Below are positions 47,395 to 53,800 of a DNA stretch of 64,000 nucleotides, piece by piece. Positions within the stretch are counted from its first letter, which is position 1, and each line of letters starts with the position of its first letter. The DNA lies in assembly GCA_965277715.1 (NCBI GenBank), contig OZ255836.1:1728001-1792000 (forward strand), read 5' to 3'. The notes beneath the pieces were generated by a model. The model saw nothing but the letters and a program-made list of their open reading frames with translations. It had not been told where the DNA came from and did no database searches. Position numbers and translations under genes: made by a program. Source of the stretch: Gammaproteobacteria bacterium (GTDB taxonomy: Bacteria; Pseudomonadota; Gammaproteobacteria; JBCCGL01).

Positions 47395-48636
47395 ATGAAA
47401 TCCACTCAACATCCTCCCCTCGAACTCAGGCTGCGTGTCTTAAGCGCTATCGATTATGCGCCCGGCCAGTCGATCCGCAAACGCATCAAACAGGTCGCCA
47501 ACCGTACCTTCCACGACGAACAAACCGGGTGCCAGTACACCTTTACCTGGCGAACCATCAGCACCTGGTTGTACCGGTATAAAAAACACGGTGTCACCGC
47601 ACTTGATAGCAAAACCCGCGCGGATAAAAACAGTTACCGGAAAATCCAGCTCAACGAATTGGCTGAGGCCATTAATGACATCCTTCCAACGTTAAGTCAC
47701 AATAAAATAGGCATCGTTCCAAAACAGGCCATTTATCGCCAGTGACTTCAGCGCAATTACTTTCAGCGTAGCCAACTCTCACAAACCTCTTTCTATTGTA
47801 TGCTTAGAGAAAATGATCTGCTTAATGGTGAACAAATACAAAAACTTCGACGATCCTTTTCTATGCAGTTTGCCAATGAACTCTGGCAGGCCGATACCCT
47901 GTATGGGCCTTCAATCAAACAACCCGATGGCAAATGGAAAAAGACCTTTCTGATCGCCTTTATTGACGATGCCAGCCGGGTCATTACCCACGGCGAATTC
48001 TTTTATCGGGATAATACCGACAACATGGTGGAGGCCTTTCGAACCGCTCTGTTTAAACGCGGTAAACCCGAAAGACTCTACTTTGATAACGGGGCCAACT
48101 ACACCTCTAAAGAAATACTACAAGCCTGTGTGCGCCTGAATATTCATCTGTCCCATGCACCCATTAGGGACGGTGCAGCAAAAGGTAAAATCGAACGGTT
48201 CTTTCGGGGATTCCGTGATCGGTTTTTAGTCCAACATGTAACCTTTGAGTCATTGGATAAACTCAACGCGCTGACCGGTGAATGGGTAGAAAATGACTAT
48301 AACACCAAGCACCATACCGGCATTGGAATGATACCGATTGACCGGTTTAACCTCGACCATAGCCGTATCCATTTCCTCACTGACGATGAGTACACCGAAG
48401 AGGTTTTCTTTATCCAAGAAAATCGCAAAGTCAGTAAAACCAATGTCTTTTCTATCAACTCACAAAAATACGAATGCCCGGTGGATTTGCGGAAAAAAAC
48501 TATCCAGGTGCGTTATGACCGGACTAAGCGAGATCGTTTTGTGGTCTATTTTGCTGACACACGTATGGGGGACCCCACAGTACTGGATCTCCACTATAAC
48601 GCTAACCTCAGAAAAAAGGCGCTAACCCATGATTAA
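47395..48636 (+). pseudogene. DDE-type integrase/transposase with HTH, interrupted by an in-frame TGA
   Basis: ORFs 47287-47745 and 47800-48636 share one frame. HTH TWRTISTWLYRYK; DDE motifs WQAD, FIDD, FDNG, KGKIERFF. Single TGA at 47743-47745. Confidence 0.82.
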
Positions 48637-49435
48637 ATCCATCTTCGGACTCACCAAAGAACCCTTTAATCGACGTGACTTGACACTATTGCCCCAACAG
48701 AAGAAGATCCTTGATATCATCAAGATTCACTCCCAGCAAGGGGGTTTCTCTGTCGTTATCGGCAAACCTGGTGTCGGTAAAAGCGTACTGTTTGAGCATA
48801 TTGAAAATCTGCAAAAAGAACGCAACATCACGGTTGTATCCTGCTCACGCACTTTGCATACTTACCTCAATATTCTCAAACAACTGGCGGAGTCGTTTAA
48901 AATTGAGGTCGCTGTTAAAGACTTGGAAAAGGAATTAATCATCAGCGCATTTAATCATATCCGGGATCGAAAAACGCTTTATATCCTGATTGATGAAGCG
49001 CATTTATTGGACATGCTAGTGTTGCGAAAGCTAAGGTTATTGTTTGAACGTTTTCCGAAAAAACATAACCTGATACTGTTTGGACAGCGGGATTTATTGT
49101 ATTACCTGTCTATGAATGTAAACCAGGATATCAAGAGTCGTATTACTTATTCTGAAAATATATCCCCGCTCAATGACGATGACCTGGAACGTTATATCAT
49201 CAAAGAGTTGGAAGCGGTTAGGATGGGCATTAATACCTTTGATAGCGCCGCTATCGAGCTGATCGTACGTTCAGCACAGGGAAACTTACGGCTCTGCCGC
49301 AATCTGTGTTATGGCAGTCTTATCGAAGCTTGTAGAGAAACCAAAAAAATCGTGACAATCAGTTATGTCAACAATGTGTTGGTACAACCCCATTGGCGCT
49401 CTCATGAAGAATTAATCAAACAGCAAGTGGCGTAA
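48629..49435 (+). CDS. ExeA/TniB-like AAA+ ATPase
   Basis: Walker A GKPGVGKS, Walker B LIDEAH, LILFGQ, SRIT and GNLRLC; overlaps the transposase stop. Confidence 0.88.
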   Translation: MIKSIFGLTKEPFNRRDLTLLPQQKKILDIIKIHSQQGGFSVVIGKPGVGKSVLFEHIENLQKERNITVVSCSRTLHTYLNILKQLAESFKIEVAVKDLEKELIISAFNHIRDRKTLYILIDEAHLLDMLVLRKLRLLFERFPKKHNLILFGQRDLLYYLSMNVNQDIKSRITYSENISPLNDDDLERYIIKELEAVRMGINTFDSAAIELIVRSAQGNLRLCRNLCYGSLIEACRETKKIVTISYVNNVLVQPHWRSHEELIKQQVA

Positions 49436-50180: not shown

Positions 50181-50849
50181 CTAAAGCAGGCCGAACACCA
50201 GAGTTTTTAAAGACGCAATCAGCTCCATTTCCACAATCGTATTGCGCCCCCTTTTGTGCATGCAAGAAAGCAATGAGTCTTGTTCCACTGTACTTTCCAA
50301 GTGCTGAATGTACTTTCTATATTTTCCCGTGTAAATATGGGAGATTTTATTTCGAATTTTTTCATCCGCAAAATCACTACTATAAATATCATCTAAAACA
50401 TCCTTGACATCGTTTAAATAAAAATAGTTAACTACGCCTTTCCCTATATCTACTCCCGGATAAATAGCTTCATACAAAACTTCAACATTAGAATTTTCTT
50501 TCAATACTTCTTTGTATATCTCATTAAAGAGTTCAATATATTGAACTCTTTCCAAGCATTGCATCGCATAGACAACAATTTTTTTCTCATCCAAATTTAG
50601 ATTGGGATTTTGTATTGCATTAACTGCGTAATCAAAGAAAACACTAGGTTTTCTATATATATGCGAGAATTTTTCATCATTTATTAAAACCGTGTTAGAT
50701 GAATAATCAAAAAATCTATAAAAATTAATTTTAAGAGCGATATCACCGATAGCCTCTATAAATGATGATTCTTCCAATAGAGTGCTCTGTTCGTTTTGAT
50801 CAATACATGATGCCAATAAAAAGATCAACCCAAATAGAATCCTTTTCAT
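50181..50849 (-). CDS. Putative lipoprotein immunity protein
   Basis: ATG 50849 overlaps the Rhs TGA; MKRILFGLIFLLASC lipobox; very AT-rich. Confidence 0.75.
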   Translation of the reverse strand: MKRILFGLIFLLASCIDQNEQSTLLEESSFIEAIGDIALKINFYRFFDYSSNTVLINDEKFSHIYRKPSVFFDYAVNAIQNPNLNLDEKKIVVYAMQCLERVQYIELFNEIYKEVLKENSNVEVLYEAIYPGVDIGKGVVNYFYLNDVKDVLDDIYSSDFADEKIRNKISHIYTGKYRKYIQHLESTVEQDSLLSCMHKRGRNTIVEMELIASLKTLVFGLL

Positions 50850-53800
50850 TGTAGACCTACCCAACGTCTATACACTATGGATCCAGATGCATTGGCGGGC
50901 TGATATGAACCCATACCTAATCTAACCATAAGGTGAGTAGTAGAATACCCCACACCGCCGTAGTTAGCAGCAATTACTTGTCTCCCAAACCCTCCTACAT
51001 AAACACCAACATGACCAGAGCCTTCTGTCCTTGCAAAAGCTGCGATATCCCCCCTCTGGGGAGAGTCTACAACTTCAAAACCTGGAATGCTCCTTGTAGC
51101 ATCTGCCCAATAATTTGCCCTAATTGGCCACTTCCCTCCCTCATACATTGGAGCTGTTGCTCCAGCCGTATTTAGCACATTTTTTACAAAACAATTACAT
51201 TTCCAATCTCCTGGGCCAAAGTTATCAACAGTTCCTGATTTTGCATAATTTGTATCACCTAAATAATCTTCTGCTACCGTTGCTATTTTTTCTCTGACCC
51301 TTTCAATTTCTAATTGCCTCTCTGCATTGTGCCAGTGGGTGAAGGCAGAGGAAGCTGCCCCATTTGCAAACTTCCCCCCACCAAGCTTAGATGCCGTCCC
51401 CCCAATCACCGCAGCAGTAACCGTCCGATGAATTTTATAATTAGCGGACTTCCCCCAAATATCAGAATTCAACGACTTTGCCCCTGCAGCAAAGGCCGAC
51501 GAAACAAACCCATAACCAAACTTTCCGCCTTGCGCAACCGCCAAAGTACCACCAACCACACCATTAGCAGCTACATTCAAGGCATACTGACCTGCACCAG
51601 CATTAATGTCAAAGGTTGAACCAACCCAGCTACTGGCTTGTTGGCCAAGATAATACGTTATCCCCGCTACAGCGGCACCTCTAGCGGCTTCCGAGGGCGA
51701 AGCCCCATACGCTCTGGCTATATCGTATTGCGCGTGCGCATAACACAGCGCTGCAAAAGGGCCACAAAATGCTGAGCCAATGGTCGCCGCGAGATTGGCA
51801 ATTTTTGGACCTACAGCCCGAATAACGGCTCTTGTAGCTTTCTTCACAAGTTGATGATGCAAAGCCGCCGACGGCCCTAATACAAGACCCGCAAGTCCCC
51901 CGAATGCTTTTTTAAGCAATCCCTTTAAAATATACCCACTAGGATCCGTATACTTCATCGGATTATTCTGCACATAGCTATAGCGACTATAGCTTTGGCT
52001 CATGCCCGCCGCCTGTATATATGGATCGGCGCTGATAAACCGCGCCAGGCTTGCATCGTATACCCGCCCATTCATATGAATCAGGCCCACTTCTTCAATC
52101 GATTCGTGGTCGGTATAAGCCCGGGTGGTAAACAGTAAACGCATGCTGTACAGCGACCCCGCACCTTGCCAGTCAAAATGGCGTTGTTTGCCCCAGGCAT
52201 CGTAACTGCGCCGATCAACCACTTGACCGTCAGCATCCGTCATCGTGTCGATACTGCCGAGCGCGTCTTTGTGCAGATAGTGGGTTTTAACACCCTCCTT
52301 GCTGGAAACACTGTGGCTGGCGACCCGATTGCCTGCAGCATAGATGTAGTGTTGATGCCGGGTGTGTTGACCGTTGTCAGTGACCTGTTTCTCGTACAAT
52401 CCCCCTACGTACCAGGTGGTATCACCTGTGTGATTGATCTTTTTATAGCGCGCCCGGTCAAGGCCATAACTAAAACGGGCCGATTTGCCGTTTTTACTGA
52501 TATGGATCGGTTTGTTAAAACTGTTCCAGGTGAAACGGCGCCCATCGCCTTCGAGCATATTGCCGTTGGCGTCGTAGTGGTATTGATGATTACCCGCGCT
52601 GCTAACAGCATGTGGCCGACCACTGGTGTATTGGTAGTGACCCACGTCAGATTTGTAGGTGATATTGCCGTAAACGTCATAATTCTGGGTTTGCGCAATA
52701 TCGAGACCACCACCGATAAAGCGCTCACTGACCAAGTGCGTGGCGGTCAGCCGGTCTAAGCGGTCGTACTCGAAGGTTTCGCGGATGTCGTTAACCAGAT
52801 CATCGCGCAATGTGACATTATTGTAGGCGTCGTATTGGTATTCGATATGCCGTATCGCGGTGCTGGCAAGCAGGCCGCTATGGATAACTTGCAACTGACC
52901 AGTGGCGGTATTGTAGCTGTAGTCGTTAACGATACCGTTACCATACGATTCTGCAGTAATGCGCCCGGACGCATCGGCATCAAGCGCCTGCCAGTAGGTG
53001 ATATGTTGGGTATCAGCCGTTTGTGCTTGATAGCTTTCAGCACCGTTTTCAAGGCTGCGTGTGTAATGGAAGCTTTGATCTGCCGCTGCCAGCGTTTGCT
53101 CGGCTAATACGGTGATTTGTTCGATCAATTGGGTGTAACTGCCGATATGCTGATCGAGTAACGCAATGACATTCTCAAGCTCAATAACGGTATTGTTGAG
53201 GTGGCCTAAAAATGCCGGTGAGAGGGTTTGGTTTTGCCCAATACTCGCCGTTAGCTTTGTTTGTTCGTCAGAACTAAGGTTCTGGGTAGGTGTTACTCCT
53301 TGGCCATTCTCGACCGGTATGAAAATACTTATACCATTGACATTAACTGGTGCCAGGGTAATTACATGGGGTTTTTCTATCTTGGCATTATTTATACTTT
53401 CTGTTAGCAAACTTTTCTGGCTATTCAGATCGGCTTGCAAGTCATCGCTTAAATGCGGTACAGGCACAGGGTCTCTGGTTGGCAGAACCAATTGACTGCG
53501 CCAGCCAGGTACGAAAATGGTGATATCTCCAACACTAATCGGTACCTGTACGCTCACCAAGGGTTGACTGGCAGCTTCTTTCTCAGCTTCTTTAAGGTCA
53601 GCCTGATATTTCGCCTCTGCACGGGTTTGTATGGCAAGTAATGCGCGGTAGTCGTCGAGTTTGGCGCGATACCGCTGCCCAATGCGCCGCAAGGTGTGCG
53701 CACGGGTTTCGTAGCTTTCAGCCAGGTCTGTCGCGGCCAGAATTAACGGGGCTAATTGGCTGAGATCACCGGTTTCTGCCCGGAGACGACTGCCACGCAC

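Follow-up and report, generated by a model that had tools for sequence, protein, structure and literature searches.

The toxin encoded on the minus strand of the analysed DNA (64,000 nucleotides, hereafter the window) carries inside its RHS/YD shell a helical insert, and we read this insert, with a probability of roughly 0.5, as an exterior display stalk presenting a target-binding module. Its relatives keep the stalk and swap its distal content, and it would therefore most likely be an outward-facing recognition arm, not a membrane needle.

Organisation of the toxin gene and its product

The 2358-aa protein encoded in the window was designated P0001, and the sequence strings quoted in the original prediction were all present in it. 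The features of the locus and of the protein are given below.

50846..57922, minus strand: toxin gene, 2358 aa
N-terminus of the 2358-aa protein: signal-like peptide
aa 40-206: SpvB (53 bits, above the Pfam cut-off)
Seven near-identical FG-GAP-like blades (FG-GAP_3, 69.8 bits, above the Pfam cut-off)
aa 672-807: TcdB_toxin_midN (69.2 bits, above the Pfam cut-off)
RHS/YD shell (PF05593 RHS_repeat, 111.6 bits against a cut-off of 22)
Rhs core motif ending in NPMKYTDPSGY (DPSGY at aa 1993-1997), a candidate self-cleavage motif of the PxxxxDPxGY type
Gly-rich hydrophobic linker between the Rhs core motif and CHAP
50999..51211, minus strand: CHAP, aa 2238-2308, C-terminal toxin part (29.9 bits against a cut-off of 26)
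50181..50864, minus strand: 227-aa ORF with a lipoprotein-like N-terminus, overlapping the end of the toxin gene
57935..58384, minus strand: 149-aa ORF upstream of the toxin gene, its end 13 nt away

The RHS/YD repeats of the protein are predicted to form a shell, which matched solved Rhs cocoons with E values down to 6.5e-18; the Pfam model RHS (PF03527) reached 17.6 bits, below its cut-off of 27.9. By its domain matches, the protein combines SpvB, a beta-propeller and the TcdB middle region in the manner of the TcB-TcC type. Three paralogues had inserts that were 99-100% identical and C-termini that differed (CHAP, Peptidase_M23 as the cargo domain of P0003, or a domain without Pfam assignment), and the locus appears to join a variable C-terminal toxin on a constant shell to a downstream candidate immunity gene. 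The latter is the 227-aa ORF, which had no Pfam match and is a candidate immunity protein by its position. The CHAP domain, the M23 domain of P0003 and the lipoprotein-like ORF overlapping the gene end suggest that the cargo is antibacterial and acts on the envelope.

An insert at a fixed site of the shell

The upstream flank YSELGFLHSVR occupies aa 1366-1376 and the downstream flank TYWQALDADASGRITAESYGNG aa 1642-1663; since the flanks end at aa 1376 and resume at aa 1642, the insert comprises aa 1377-1641.

53000..53794, minus strand: insert, 265 aa (aa 1377-1641), between the shell strands YSELGFLHSVR and TYWQALDADASGR

An insertion of about 265 aa had been proposed here, and its size and place were right, whereas its end coordinate, 53795, lay one base too far. 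The insert is located in the last part of the shell, approximately 350 residues before the Rhs core. In the alignment with 8qja, the solved chain was about 264 residues shorter than the query between the matched blocks that flank the insert.

Relatives of the insert were found by an exhaustive phmmer search, and the best 120 of 1262 matches were examined; when the insert alone was the query of a word-index search, no more than the three paralogues from a single genome were recovered among 2475 candidates. Both flanks could be placed in 114 of the 125 collected relatives, and these were scored. The length at the insert site was bimodal, with 4-24 residues in 24 of the 114 proteins, 123-417 aa in the other 90 and none in between, and every insert call was unchanged when a stricter gap rule was re-applied to the 125-protein set. 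The short class agrees with the earlier statement that the two flanks lie a few residues apart in Rhs proteins, and the occurrence of a helical insert at the same site in 90 relatives rules out that it is unique to one strain. The inserts also differed in composition from the whole proteins, with less G+Y (9.3% vs 15.9%) and more A/L/E/Q/K/R (47% vs 32%). The insert is a discrete domain at a fixed site of the shell.

Twenty-four relatives, including nine paralogues in genome G002, did not have the stalk, which is therefore accessory; G002 holds eight insert-bearing paralogues as well. Inspection of the HSPs placed loci L065 and L061 among the insert-less ones, and a 128-aa insert called at L065 was discarded as a repeat-induced artefact.

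Predicted fold of the insert

Two AlphaFold2 runs were made on the insert, with a mean pLDDT of 58.0 in run 1 and of 68.9 in run 2, which used a 49-row alignment. The elements proposed are the following.

53567..53752, minus strand: outgoing helix, 62 residues, aa 1391-1452 (AlphaFold2)
53507..53545, minus strand: motif 1, VPISVGDITIFVP, aa 1460-1472, in a predicted beta-hairpin at about aa 1459-1472
aa 1493-1512, minus strand: short helix within the distal cassette (AlphaFold2)
53312..53353, minus strand: motif 2, APVNVNGISIFIPV, aa 1524-1537, an internal duplicate of motif 1, in a predicted beta-hairpin at about aa 1522-1537
53237..53272, minus strand: short conserved helix, aa 1551-1562, consensus LxxHQxxLxxxV
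53015..53218, minus strand: return helix, 68 residues, aa 1569-1636, the most conserved part of the insert
53282..53632, minus strand: variable distal cassette, aa 1431-1547, with both beta motifs and the helix 1493-1512

In run 2 the means of 10-residue blocks were 75-88 in the outgoing helix (1391-1452) and about 69-89 in the return helix (1569-1636). The tip in run 2 was mostly below 60 and in places below 50. Over both runs the region between the two long helices was of low confidence, with block means of 38-72 and much of it below 50. The family-averaged hydrophobic periodicity of the insert was 3.45-3.5 residues. A structural comparison with VIA-align superposed model residues 14-277, approximately, on solved helical hairpins with Z values of 9-11. 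For helical models the tool itself sets the noise level at about 13, so these matches fall short of it and say nothing about function. They included LipC (Z 10.8, rmsd 3.2 over 136 aligned residues), colicin Ia (Z 9.5) and EmrA (Z 9.3), and they formed a plateau over unrelated hairpins (ESCRT-III, SMC, LipC, colicin Ia and designed bundles), which we read as a generic arrangement and not a relationship. Modelling of the insert as a monomer thus returned the antiparallel coiled-coil hairpin that the original prediction had proposed, in agreement with the hydrophobic period and the generic level of the structural alignments, and at the level of these models we count the heptad periodicity and the helical-hairpin secondary structure as demonstrated.

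The outgoing helix was conserved across close relatives only in its first part, up to about aa 1430. An LSPxFLGHL turn directly follows the helix at aa 1551-1562, and within the return helix nearly every position of VLAEQTLAAAD (about aa 1605-1615) was conserved. This exceeds the needs of a solvent-exposed two-helix coil and suggests that the helix may touch something else as well (the shell, a partner or a second copy), which a display stalk leaves unexplained.

Conserved base and exchangeable distal cassette

Residues 1365-1430 and 1548-1641 were occupied in essentially all of 40 close relatives, whereas residues 1431-1547 were occupied in about a fifth of them. The minimal inserts, of 157-163 aa, had a short polar or Gly/Ser-rich loop in place of the motif region. 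Three pairs of proteins shared identical or near-identical flanks and stalk bases and had inserts of very different length (P0007/P0029, 289 and 161 aa; P0051/P0054, 240 and 131 aa; P0033/P0036, 295 and 161 aa), and the distal helices diverged within each of these pairs as well. The nearest tree neighbour of P0001 was P0019 (SH-like 98), whose 323-aa insert contains an F5/8 type C domain at aa 1449-1561, where P0001 has the beta motifs (F5_F8_type_C, 36.6 bits, cut-off 28.2; F5_F8_type_C_2, 36.7 bits, cut-off 27.8). The Pfam search found neither PF00754 nor PF22633 in the P0001 insert, and P0019 was the only protein with a Pfam-recognised binding domain in its insert, six insert-bearing proteins having been scanned and the rest covered by precomputed Pfam lists. 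Across relatives the cassette held nothing, one motif, a stretch of about 110 aa without assignment, or the F5/8 type C domain. The distal part is a swappable cassette on a conserved stalk base.

The halves containing motif 1 and motif 2 gave a local alignment score of 60, against 27.8 +/- 4.75 and a maximum of 43 in 200 shuffles, so that their similarity, claimed earlier, was above chance. A strict pattern derived from the P0001 motif had 15 matches within inserts (20,188 residues), spread over 14 proteins, some of them with distantly related inserts, and none in 231,033 residues outside inserts; by this pattern the beta motif is specific to inserts. Depending on the relative, it was placed at two different loops of the stalk. 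The motifs were moderately hydrophobic, with a best 19-residue Kyte-Doolittle mean of 1.47, and their predicted strands were about 6 residues long.

Searches for known relatives and distribution

Pfam detected nothing in the inserts of P0001, P0003, P0048, P0052, P0033, P0034 and P0108. The PDB sequence search with the insert returned a single chance-level row (E 0.88), so that neither Pfam nor the sequences of solved structures contained a known unrelated domain matching it, and the ESM Atlas search gave no usable match. Foldseek, which had been suggested as a further check, found no match at E <= 0.001 against the PDB; the best rows were V-ATPase stalk subunits (E 0.23), colicin Ia was at E 1.9 and NheA at E 2.0. 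The articles covered by our literature search described no helical insert in an Rhs shell. The insert-bearing proteins are a large unannotated subfamily with no Pfam model over the insert. They were found in Gammaproteobacteria of marine origin, several of which are represented by MAGs or uncultured isolates (one is Candidatus Endobugula sertula); more divergent inserts occurred in proteins named in their sources as Sulfurimonas and Arcobacter.

Comparison with known systems

P0001 has the SpvB domain, the FG-GAP-type propeller, TcdB_toxin_midN, the RHS repeats, the Rhs core motif and the variable C-terminal toxin of TcB-TcC cocoons (YenB/YenC2 and TcdB-TccC); its direct similarity to YenB, TcdB1 and SpvB was weak (E 2.5e-5 to 1.1e-4 over about 54 residues). 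Unlike them, it has all its domains fused in one chain, whose N-terminus is signal-like, and its cargo is of the peptidoglycan hydrolase type (CHAP, M23) instead of a eukaryote-directed enzyme. The best solved-structure matches to the shell were T6SS Rhs effectors (8qja, 8h8a, 7q97, Tse15 and Tse5; E 6.5e-18 to 6.3e-9), which are likewise antibacterial polymorphic toxins. These effectors are delivered through PAAR/VgrG and are not known to have an SpvB/propeller N-terminus, whereas P0001 has SpvB, FG-GAP and TcdB_midN and, according to Pfam, neither PAAR nor VgrG. No solved Tc chain and no T6SS Rhs effector structure matched the insert by sequence.

Colicin Ia offers a likeness of another kind, since there, too, a binding element of small size is presented on a long antiparallel helical hairpin, and the toxin is antibacterial and has to cross the Gram-negative outer membrane. 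In E-type colicins the receptor-binding domains are located on long helical hairpins, and the recognition logic that we propose resembles theirs. The alignment of colicin Ia to the insert model (Z 9.5, 119 residues, rmsd 2.5) is at the generic level of helical hairpins and the PDB sequence search showed no colicin similarity to the insert, and we use the comparison as a functional analogy only. The hairpin of P0001 is moreover inserted in a 250-kDa capsule, whereas that of colicins joins the domain for translocation to the one for killing.

Bacterial teneurin-like proteins (TLPs; 9ifo, 9pt5) are described in PMC13018210 as YD-shell toxins that are Sec-targeted, enclose their cargo and have immunity proteins. 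They share the YD shell and the Sec targeting with P0001, whose shell they matched weakly (E about 1e-7). In contrast, their N-termini carry other domains, and the main text of PMC13018210 describes no stalk and does not use the words helical, coiled, hairpin, SpvB or FG-GAP. A precedent for a decorated shell is mosquito SGS1. According to PMC9935623, its Rhs/YD repeats are interrupted in sequence by domains (CBM, lectin-CRD, wedge and propeller) that lie on the exterior of the shell in the solved structure and are proposed to bind receptors or carbohydrates. The F5/8 type C domain of the P0019 insert would follow the same decoration logic as in SGS1 and teneurins. The inserts of SGS1 differ in being globular beta-sandwiches set directly on the shell, whereas the P0001 family has a coiled-coil stalk (helices of 62 and 68 residues) and exchanges the whole cassette among close relatives.

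Possible role of the stalk

That the stalk lies outside, that it binds and what it binds are inferences; the exterior position is suggested by the size variability of the insert, the folded lectin-like domain in P0019 and the SGS1 precedent. In our reading the antiparallel coiled-coil stalk is built into a single loop of the YD shell, and the toxin is a Sec-exported cocoon resembling a TcB/TcC fusion. The stalk would project to the outside, reaching an estimated 90-100 Å or so by the length of its helices, with its base as a conserved scaffold and its distal cassette presenting a binding module, which in P0001 may consist of two copies of the small beta-hairpin motif. This module might recognise a structure of the target-cell surface, or anchor the toxin on a cell surface, and the capsule would thus be positioned before it releases its peptidoglycan-cleaving cargo (CHAP here, M23 in the paralogue).

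For the question of how Sec-exported Rhs capsules with no TcA, T6SS or CDI partner find and enter their targets, a conserved one-site stalk with a cassette swapped between otherwise identical proteins offers a tangible candidate for target recognition that experiments can address. A bolder view, which we hold to be rather unlikely, is that these proteins are self-contained cocoon toxins working without TcA, in which the stalk would be the toxin's own cell-entry organ: the receptor on competing bacteria, in the outer membrane or a surface glycan, would be chosen by the exchangeable cassette, in the manner of colicin R domains; through the conserved base, attachment would lead to opening of the capsule, and the peptidoglycan hydrolase would reach the periplasm of the target. 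If true, this would be a new Rhs delivery route independent of T6SS, T7SS, CDI and Tc injectosomes. Seen as a natural scaffold, the stalk also accepts modules from 0 to about 260 residues in length.

The original prediction had taken the hydrophobic hairpins at the tip as the working part and had supposed that the insert substitutes for TcA. The stalk would then be a device for membrane insertion or translocation, its hairpins entering the target membrane alone or after oligomerising, by analogy with the helical channel hairpins of TcA or with ClyA-type toxins, which are helical bundles with a hydrophobic beta-tongue. A long helical hairpin with two beta-hairpin motifs of moderate hydrophobicity close to its end is consistent with this, as is the result that the TcA families PF18276 and PF03538 were not found in four of the five genomes with insert-bearing relatives; they were found only in G005, on contigs apart from its two insert-bearing loci. 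In the window, none of the ORFs of at least 80 aa at positions 38000-64000 had the length of a TcA. TcA pore-state chains and NheA also appeared among the Foldseek rows, only at a non-significant E of 2-3. However, the hydrophobic hairpins, on which the ClyA-family comparison depends, were not conserved among the insert relatives, most of the close ones having polar loops, or in P0019 the lectin-like domain, at the position where about a fifth of the 40 close relatives have the motif region. A best 19-residue hydropathy of 1.47 and strands of about 6 residues also argue against membrane entry, as does the place of the stalk, some 350 residues ahead of the Rhs core, since the route of the cargo out of solved Tc toxins is through the propeller end of the shell. 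Finally, insert-less and insert-bearing paralogues are found side by side in G002, which had no TcA match, and the insert is therefore not the cause of TcA independence. We consider a membrane device replacing TcA very unlikely.

The long heptad-periodic helices, together with the conservation of VLAEQTLAAAD on all faces and its richness in small residues, a pattern that close packing of several helices would favour, would suit an oligomerisation module in which the stalks of at least two toxin molecules form a helical bundle and make the capsule multivalent. The distal helices, however, diverge between near-identical proteins, which fits recognition better than a conserved self-interface; the base could still pair, and we give this module a small chance. 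The strong conservation of the stalk base and of the middle of the return helix, and the position of the insert in the last shell part before the Rhs core, would also be expected of a structural brace or latch lying along the shell or over its opening and controlling the stability or opening of the capsule with no part in recognition. We find such a latch highly improbable, as a length range of 123-417 aa, swapped cassettes and a lectin-like domain are all unexpected for it and 24 relatives manage without the insert. The stalk might instead be a docking site for a partner in the producer cell, for example the upstream 149-aa protein (hydrophobic N-terminus and coiled coil), which would keep the toxin at the envelope or assist in exporting it. 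Of the 10 loci with upstream sequence, the window included, 8 had a homologue of this small gene upstream in the same orientation, and it was found in four of the five related genomes; the AKKL and R-L-x-x-I-x-x-H motifs were invariant in the protein family. The 149-aa protein is a possible partner of the toxin. Nevertheless, in G002 it precedes only one of the eight insert-bearing paralogues and the others have no analogous small ORF, the protein has no Pfam or PHROG family above cut-off, and its co-occurrence with the toxin is confounded by phylogeny, so that we regard docking as distinctly unlikely.

The upstream 149-aa gene

The 149-aa ORF encodes an N-terminal hydrophobic helix followed by two helices. 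Its assignment as an i-spanin-like protein or to a known family was rejected, because all Pfam matches were below cut-off and the PHROG matches were only to single-member families at E >= 0.01, and a tie of the small gene to every insert-bearing gene was given up on the G002 count. Among 399 scored genomes of the class of G001, the sole credible match to the 149-aa protein was in G001 itself, and the three other matches in this sample were weak stretches inside ORFs of 532-1151 aa.

The toxin gene and its insert

All the strings cited in the original prediction were found in P0001, a toxin with an Rhs/YD shell, and the insert occupied aa 1377-1641 (window 53000-53794, - strand). The gene and its recognised parts were the following:

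50846..57922, - strand: toxin ORF P0001, 2358 aa, containing the insert
aa 40-206 of P0001: SpvB (Pfam)
P0001: FG-GAP_3 (Pfam)
aa 672-807 of P0001: TcdB_toxin_midN (Pfam)
P0001: RHS_repeat (Pfam, 111.6 bits)
aa 2238-2308 of P0001: CHAP (Pfam, 29.9 bits, cut-off 26)
50846-51931, - strand: post-core linker and toxin end of P0001

P0001 began with a hydrophobic, signal-like peptide and its Rhs core motif terminated in DPSGY (aa 1993-1997). The two beta-hairpin motifs of the insert were an internal duplication, with a local score of 60 versus 27.8 +/- 4.75 in 200 shuffles. Two paralogues on the same 4.29-Mb contig (P0002 and P0003) had inserts 99-100% identical and different C-terminal domains, that of P0003 being Peptidase_M23. 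These three proteins of one genome had the shell and the stalk in common, their C-termini being CHAP, Peptidase_M23 or an unassigned domain, and a Gly-rich hydrophobic linker carrying GGKF(A/G)xG motifs, similar in all three, was localised between the Rhs core and the toxin domain. The FG-GAP-like propeller of P0001 corresponded to a 174-nt tandem repeat (6.9 copies, 96% identity, window 55800-56998, - strand), so its blades were nearly identical, a sequence feature pointing to recent amplification or gene conversion; the blade set of P0003 was different, yet also highly repetitive.

Distribution of the insert

When the insert alone was used as query in an exhaustive phmmer search over 1.84 billion cluster representatives, 21 proteins passed E <= 0.001 and 19 of these also passed E <= 1e-10; nearly all were 2200-2700 aa long and were matched in a similar part of the chain. 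Searching next with aa 1150-1960 yielded 1262 proteins at E <= 1e-20 out of 8000 scored candidates, the best 120 being listed. Insert length was determined by placing the 100 residues of each side in 125 collected proteins, 114 of which were scorable. The gap between the flanks was 4-24 residues in 24 of them and 123-417 in the other 90, with no intermediate values, and a stricter choice of HSPs left the class of every protein in the 125-protein set unchanged. The premise that both shell strands adjoin in some relatives was thus borne out, and the possibility that the insert was unique to this strain could be discarded: it is a family-wide domain.

BLAST matched the P0001 insert in 44 of the 125 proteins, and a profile made from these inserts recovered a further 14 at E < 1e-3, the set searched being small (the 90 inserts). 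It matched none of 32 others, even at E <= 10; these were likewise rich in A, Q, E and L, and had in common the entry motif S-P-x-x-Q-I-x-D-Y-D-x-x-H-L and the exit motif Y/F-W-R-A-x-x-R-D-A-A-G-R. Pfam-A had no model that spans any insert scanned, and no solved-structure sequence matched the insert.

Predicted structure

Two AlphaFold2 runs, one on aa 1297-1721 (20 rows, mean pLDDT 58.0) and the other on aa 1365-1653 (49 rows, mean pLDDT 68.9, pTM 0.48), agreed in the secondary structure of the insert:

aa 1391-1452: helix, 62 residues
between the 62-residue and the short helix: beta-hairpin, 20-residue helix, second beta-hairpin
aa 1551-1562: short helix
aa 1569-1636: helix, 68 residues

The 10-residue block means of pLDDT were about 69-89 in the long helices and 38-72 in the stretch between them, much of it being below 50. 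The strongest family-averaged hydropathy period of both long helices was 3.45-3.5 residues, the heptad value. Together, the modelled helices and this period support the antiparallel coiled-coil hairpin that had been predicted, and we infer that it points to the exterior. VIA-align placed model residues about 14-277 onto solved antiparallel hairpins with Z of 9.2-10.8 among the 50 matches listed, below the ~13 that the tool itself considers informative for helical models. Foldseek gave no significant match to the insert model.

A variable distal cassette

Residues 1365-1430 and 1548-1641 were present in all 40 close relatives, and residues 1431-1547, which contain the two motifs, in about a fifth. 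In the minimal inserts (157-163 aa) a short polar or Gly/Ser-rich loop joined the first helix to the short helix. A strict pattern derived from the P0001 beta-hairpin motif, run over insert and non-insert residues of the relatives, had 15 matches in 20,188 residues of inserts versus 0 in 231,033 outside them; it was present in 14 proteins, distant insert types included, and in P0007 and P0012 the motif was at another loop, between the short and the return helix.

A tree (112 rows, FastTree, midpoint root) was built from the 340 residues that follow the insert. The relative P0019 paired with P0001 (SH-like 98), and its 323-aa insert contained an F5/8 type C domain (aa 1449-1561, above both Pfam cut-offs) immediately following the conserved segment of the first helix. 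In three pairs of proteins whose shells were near-identical (tip branches about 0.004-0.06), the inserts measured 289 and 161, 240 and 131, and 295 and 161 aa; flanks and stalk base were identical or nearly so, and distal helices and tip were divergent. This pattern is the signature of a swapped cassette. Twenty-three of the 24 insert-less proteins formed one group (SH-like 98). The remaining one, P0044, was placed inside the close-insert group and its 24-residue remnant retained the first residues of the insert, implying a secondary deletion. Because the tree was in effect unrooted and gave long-branch warnings, no direction of insert gain or loss is claimed.

SGS1 and the teneurins already provide examples of receptor domains inserted into YD shells; in the text returned by full-text literature searches, no TcB/TcC-like bacterial toxin was described whose coiled-coil stalk bears a swappable distal cassette.

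Gene neighbourhood

47800-49435, + strand: rve integrase and AAA_22 ATPase, flank of the toxin operon
50181-50864, - strand: 227-aa ORF, overlapping the toxin gene end by 19 nt
57935-58384, - strand: 149-aa ORF, ending 13 nt upstream of the toxin gene
58545-61318, - strand: DDE_Tnp_1 fragment, rve integrase and HTH_Tnp_1, other flank of the operon

Neither Pfam nor PHROG gave the 149-aa ORF a family above cut-off. It had a hydrophobic helix at its N-terminus and an R-L-x-x-I-x-x-H helix at its C-terminus, together with a coiled-coil helix and an invariant AKKL motif. Of the 10 loci with sequence upstream, 8 had a homologue there in the orientation of the toxin gene; in the related genome G002 one preceded only 1 of 8 insert-bearing paralogues. 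The 227-aa ORF, without Pfam match and with a lipoprotein-like N-terminus (LLASC), is a candidate immunity protein. Mobile-element genes (transposase, integrase) were present on both sides of the operon. A second small conserved ORF (127-128 aa, signal peptide and conserved APTCH motif), absent from the window, was seen in loci L009 (5207-5590), L010 (5416-5799) and L011 (12616-13002); in two of them it separated the toxin gene from the small upstream gene, and in the third it lay downstream of the toxin gene.

Possible role of the stalk

The best-supported reading is that the stalk is outside the shell and its distal part would present an exchangeable binding module. The fixed insertion site, the three-fold spread of insert lengths, the folded lectin-like domain that P0019, the nearest relative, has at this position and the exchange of cassettes between identical shells argue for it, as does the solved precedent of SGS1, where, according to PMC9935623, carbohydrate-binding domains encoded as YD-repeat insertions decorate the shell exterior. 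Judging from the CHAP and M23 cargo types and from the lipoprotein-like ORF downstream, bacterial envelopes are the likely target, so that the helical-hairpin receptor domain of colicins would be the closest functional likeness, as an analogy only. In the return helix VLAEQTLAAAD is conserved almost completely; an exterior stalk does not explain this, and it suggests another contact. Such a contact keeps three rival explanations alive: oligomerisation of the stalk, one of the roles originally proposed; docking of a partner, for which the upstream 149-aa protein would be a candidate; and a latch on the shell.

Membrane insertion replacing TcA, the other role proposed, is the least supported: most close relatives lack the region holding the two motifs, and P0019 has its F5/8 type C domain there instead. 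Scanning a single genome per species gave 14 loci, in Hahella, Exilibacterium, Cellvibrionaceae MAGs, Candidatus Endobugula, IMCC1989, a Chromatiales MAG, a Pseudomonadota MAG and uncultured Pseudomonadales. Five of these genomes were scanned for the TcA families PF18276 and PF03538; both were present in G005, and the other four, G002 among them, gave no match. G002 (7.2 Mb, the genome of L008 and L011) had 19 shell matches, most of them ORFs of 2160-2840 aa, and among the 18 loci fetched, eight had inserts of 159-256 aa, nine had 3-11 residues and one was uncalled, so that insert-bearing and insert-less paralogues stood side by side. Among proteins starting with M, signal-like N-termini were found in 69 of 88 insert-bearing and 14 of 20 insert-less ones. 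Since G002 mixes both classes, TcA families were found in one genome of five and such N-termini are common to both, the insert is an accessory of a TcA-independent family and not the cause of TcA independence. The number of toxins of this kind in G002 is in itself unusually large.
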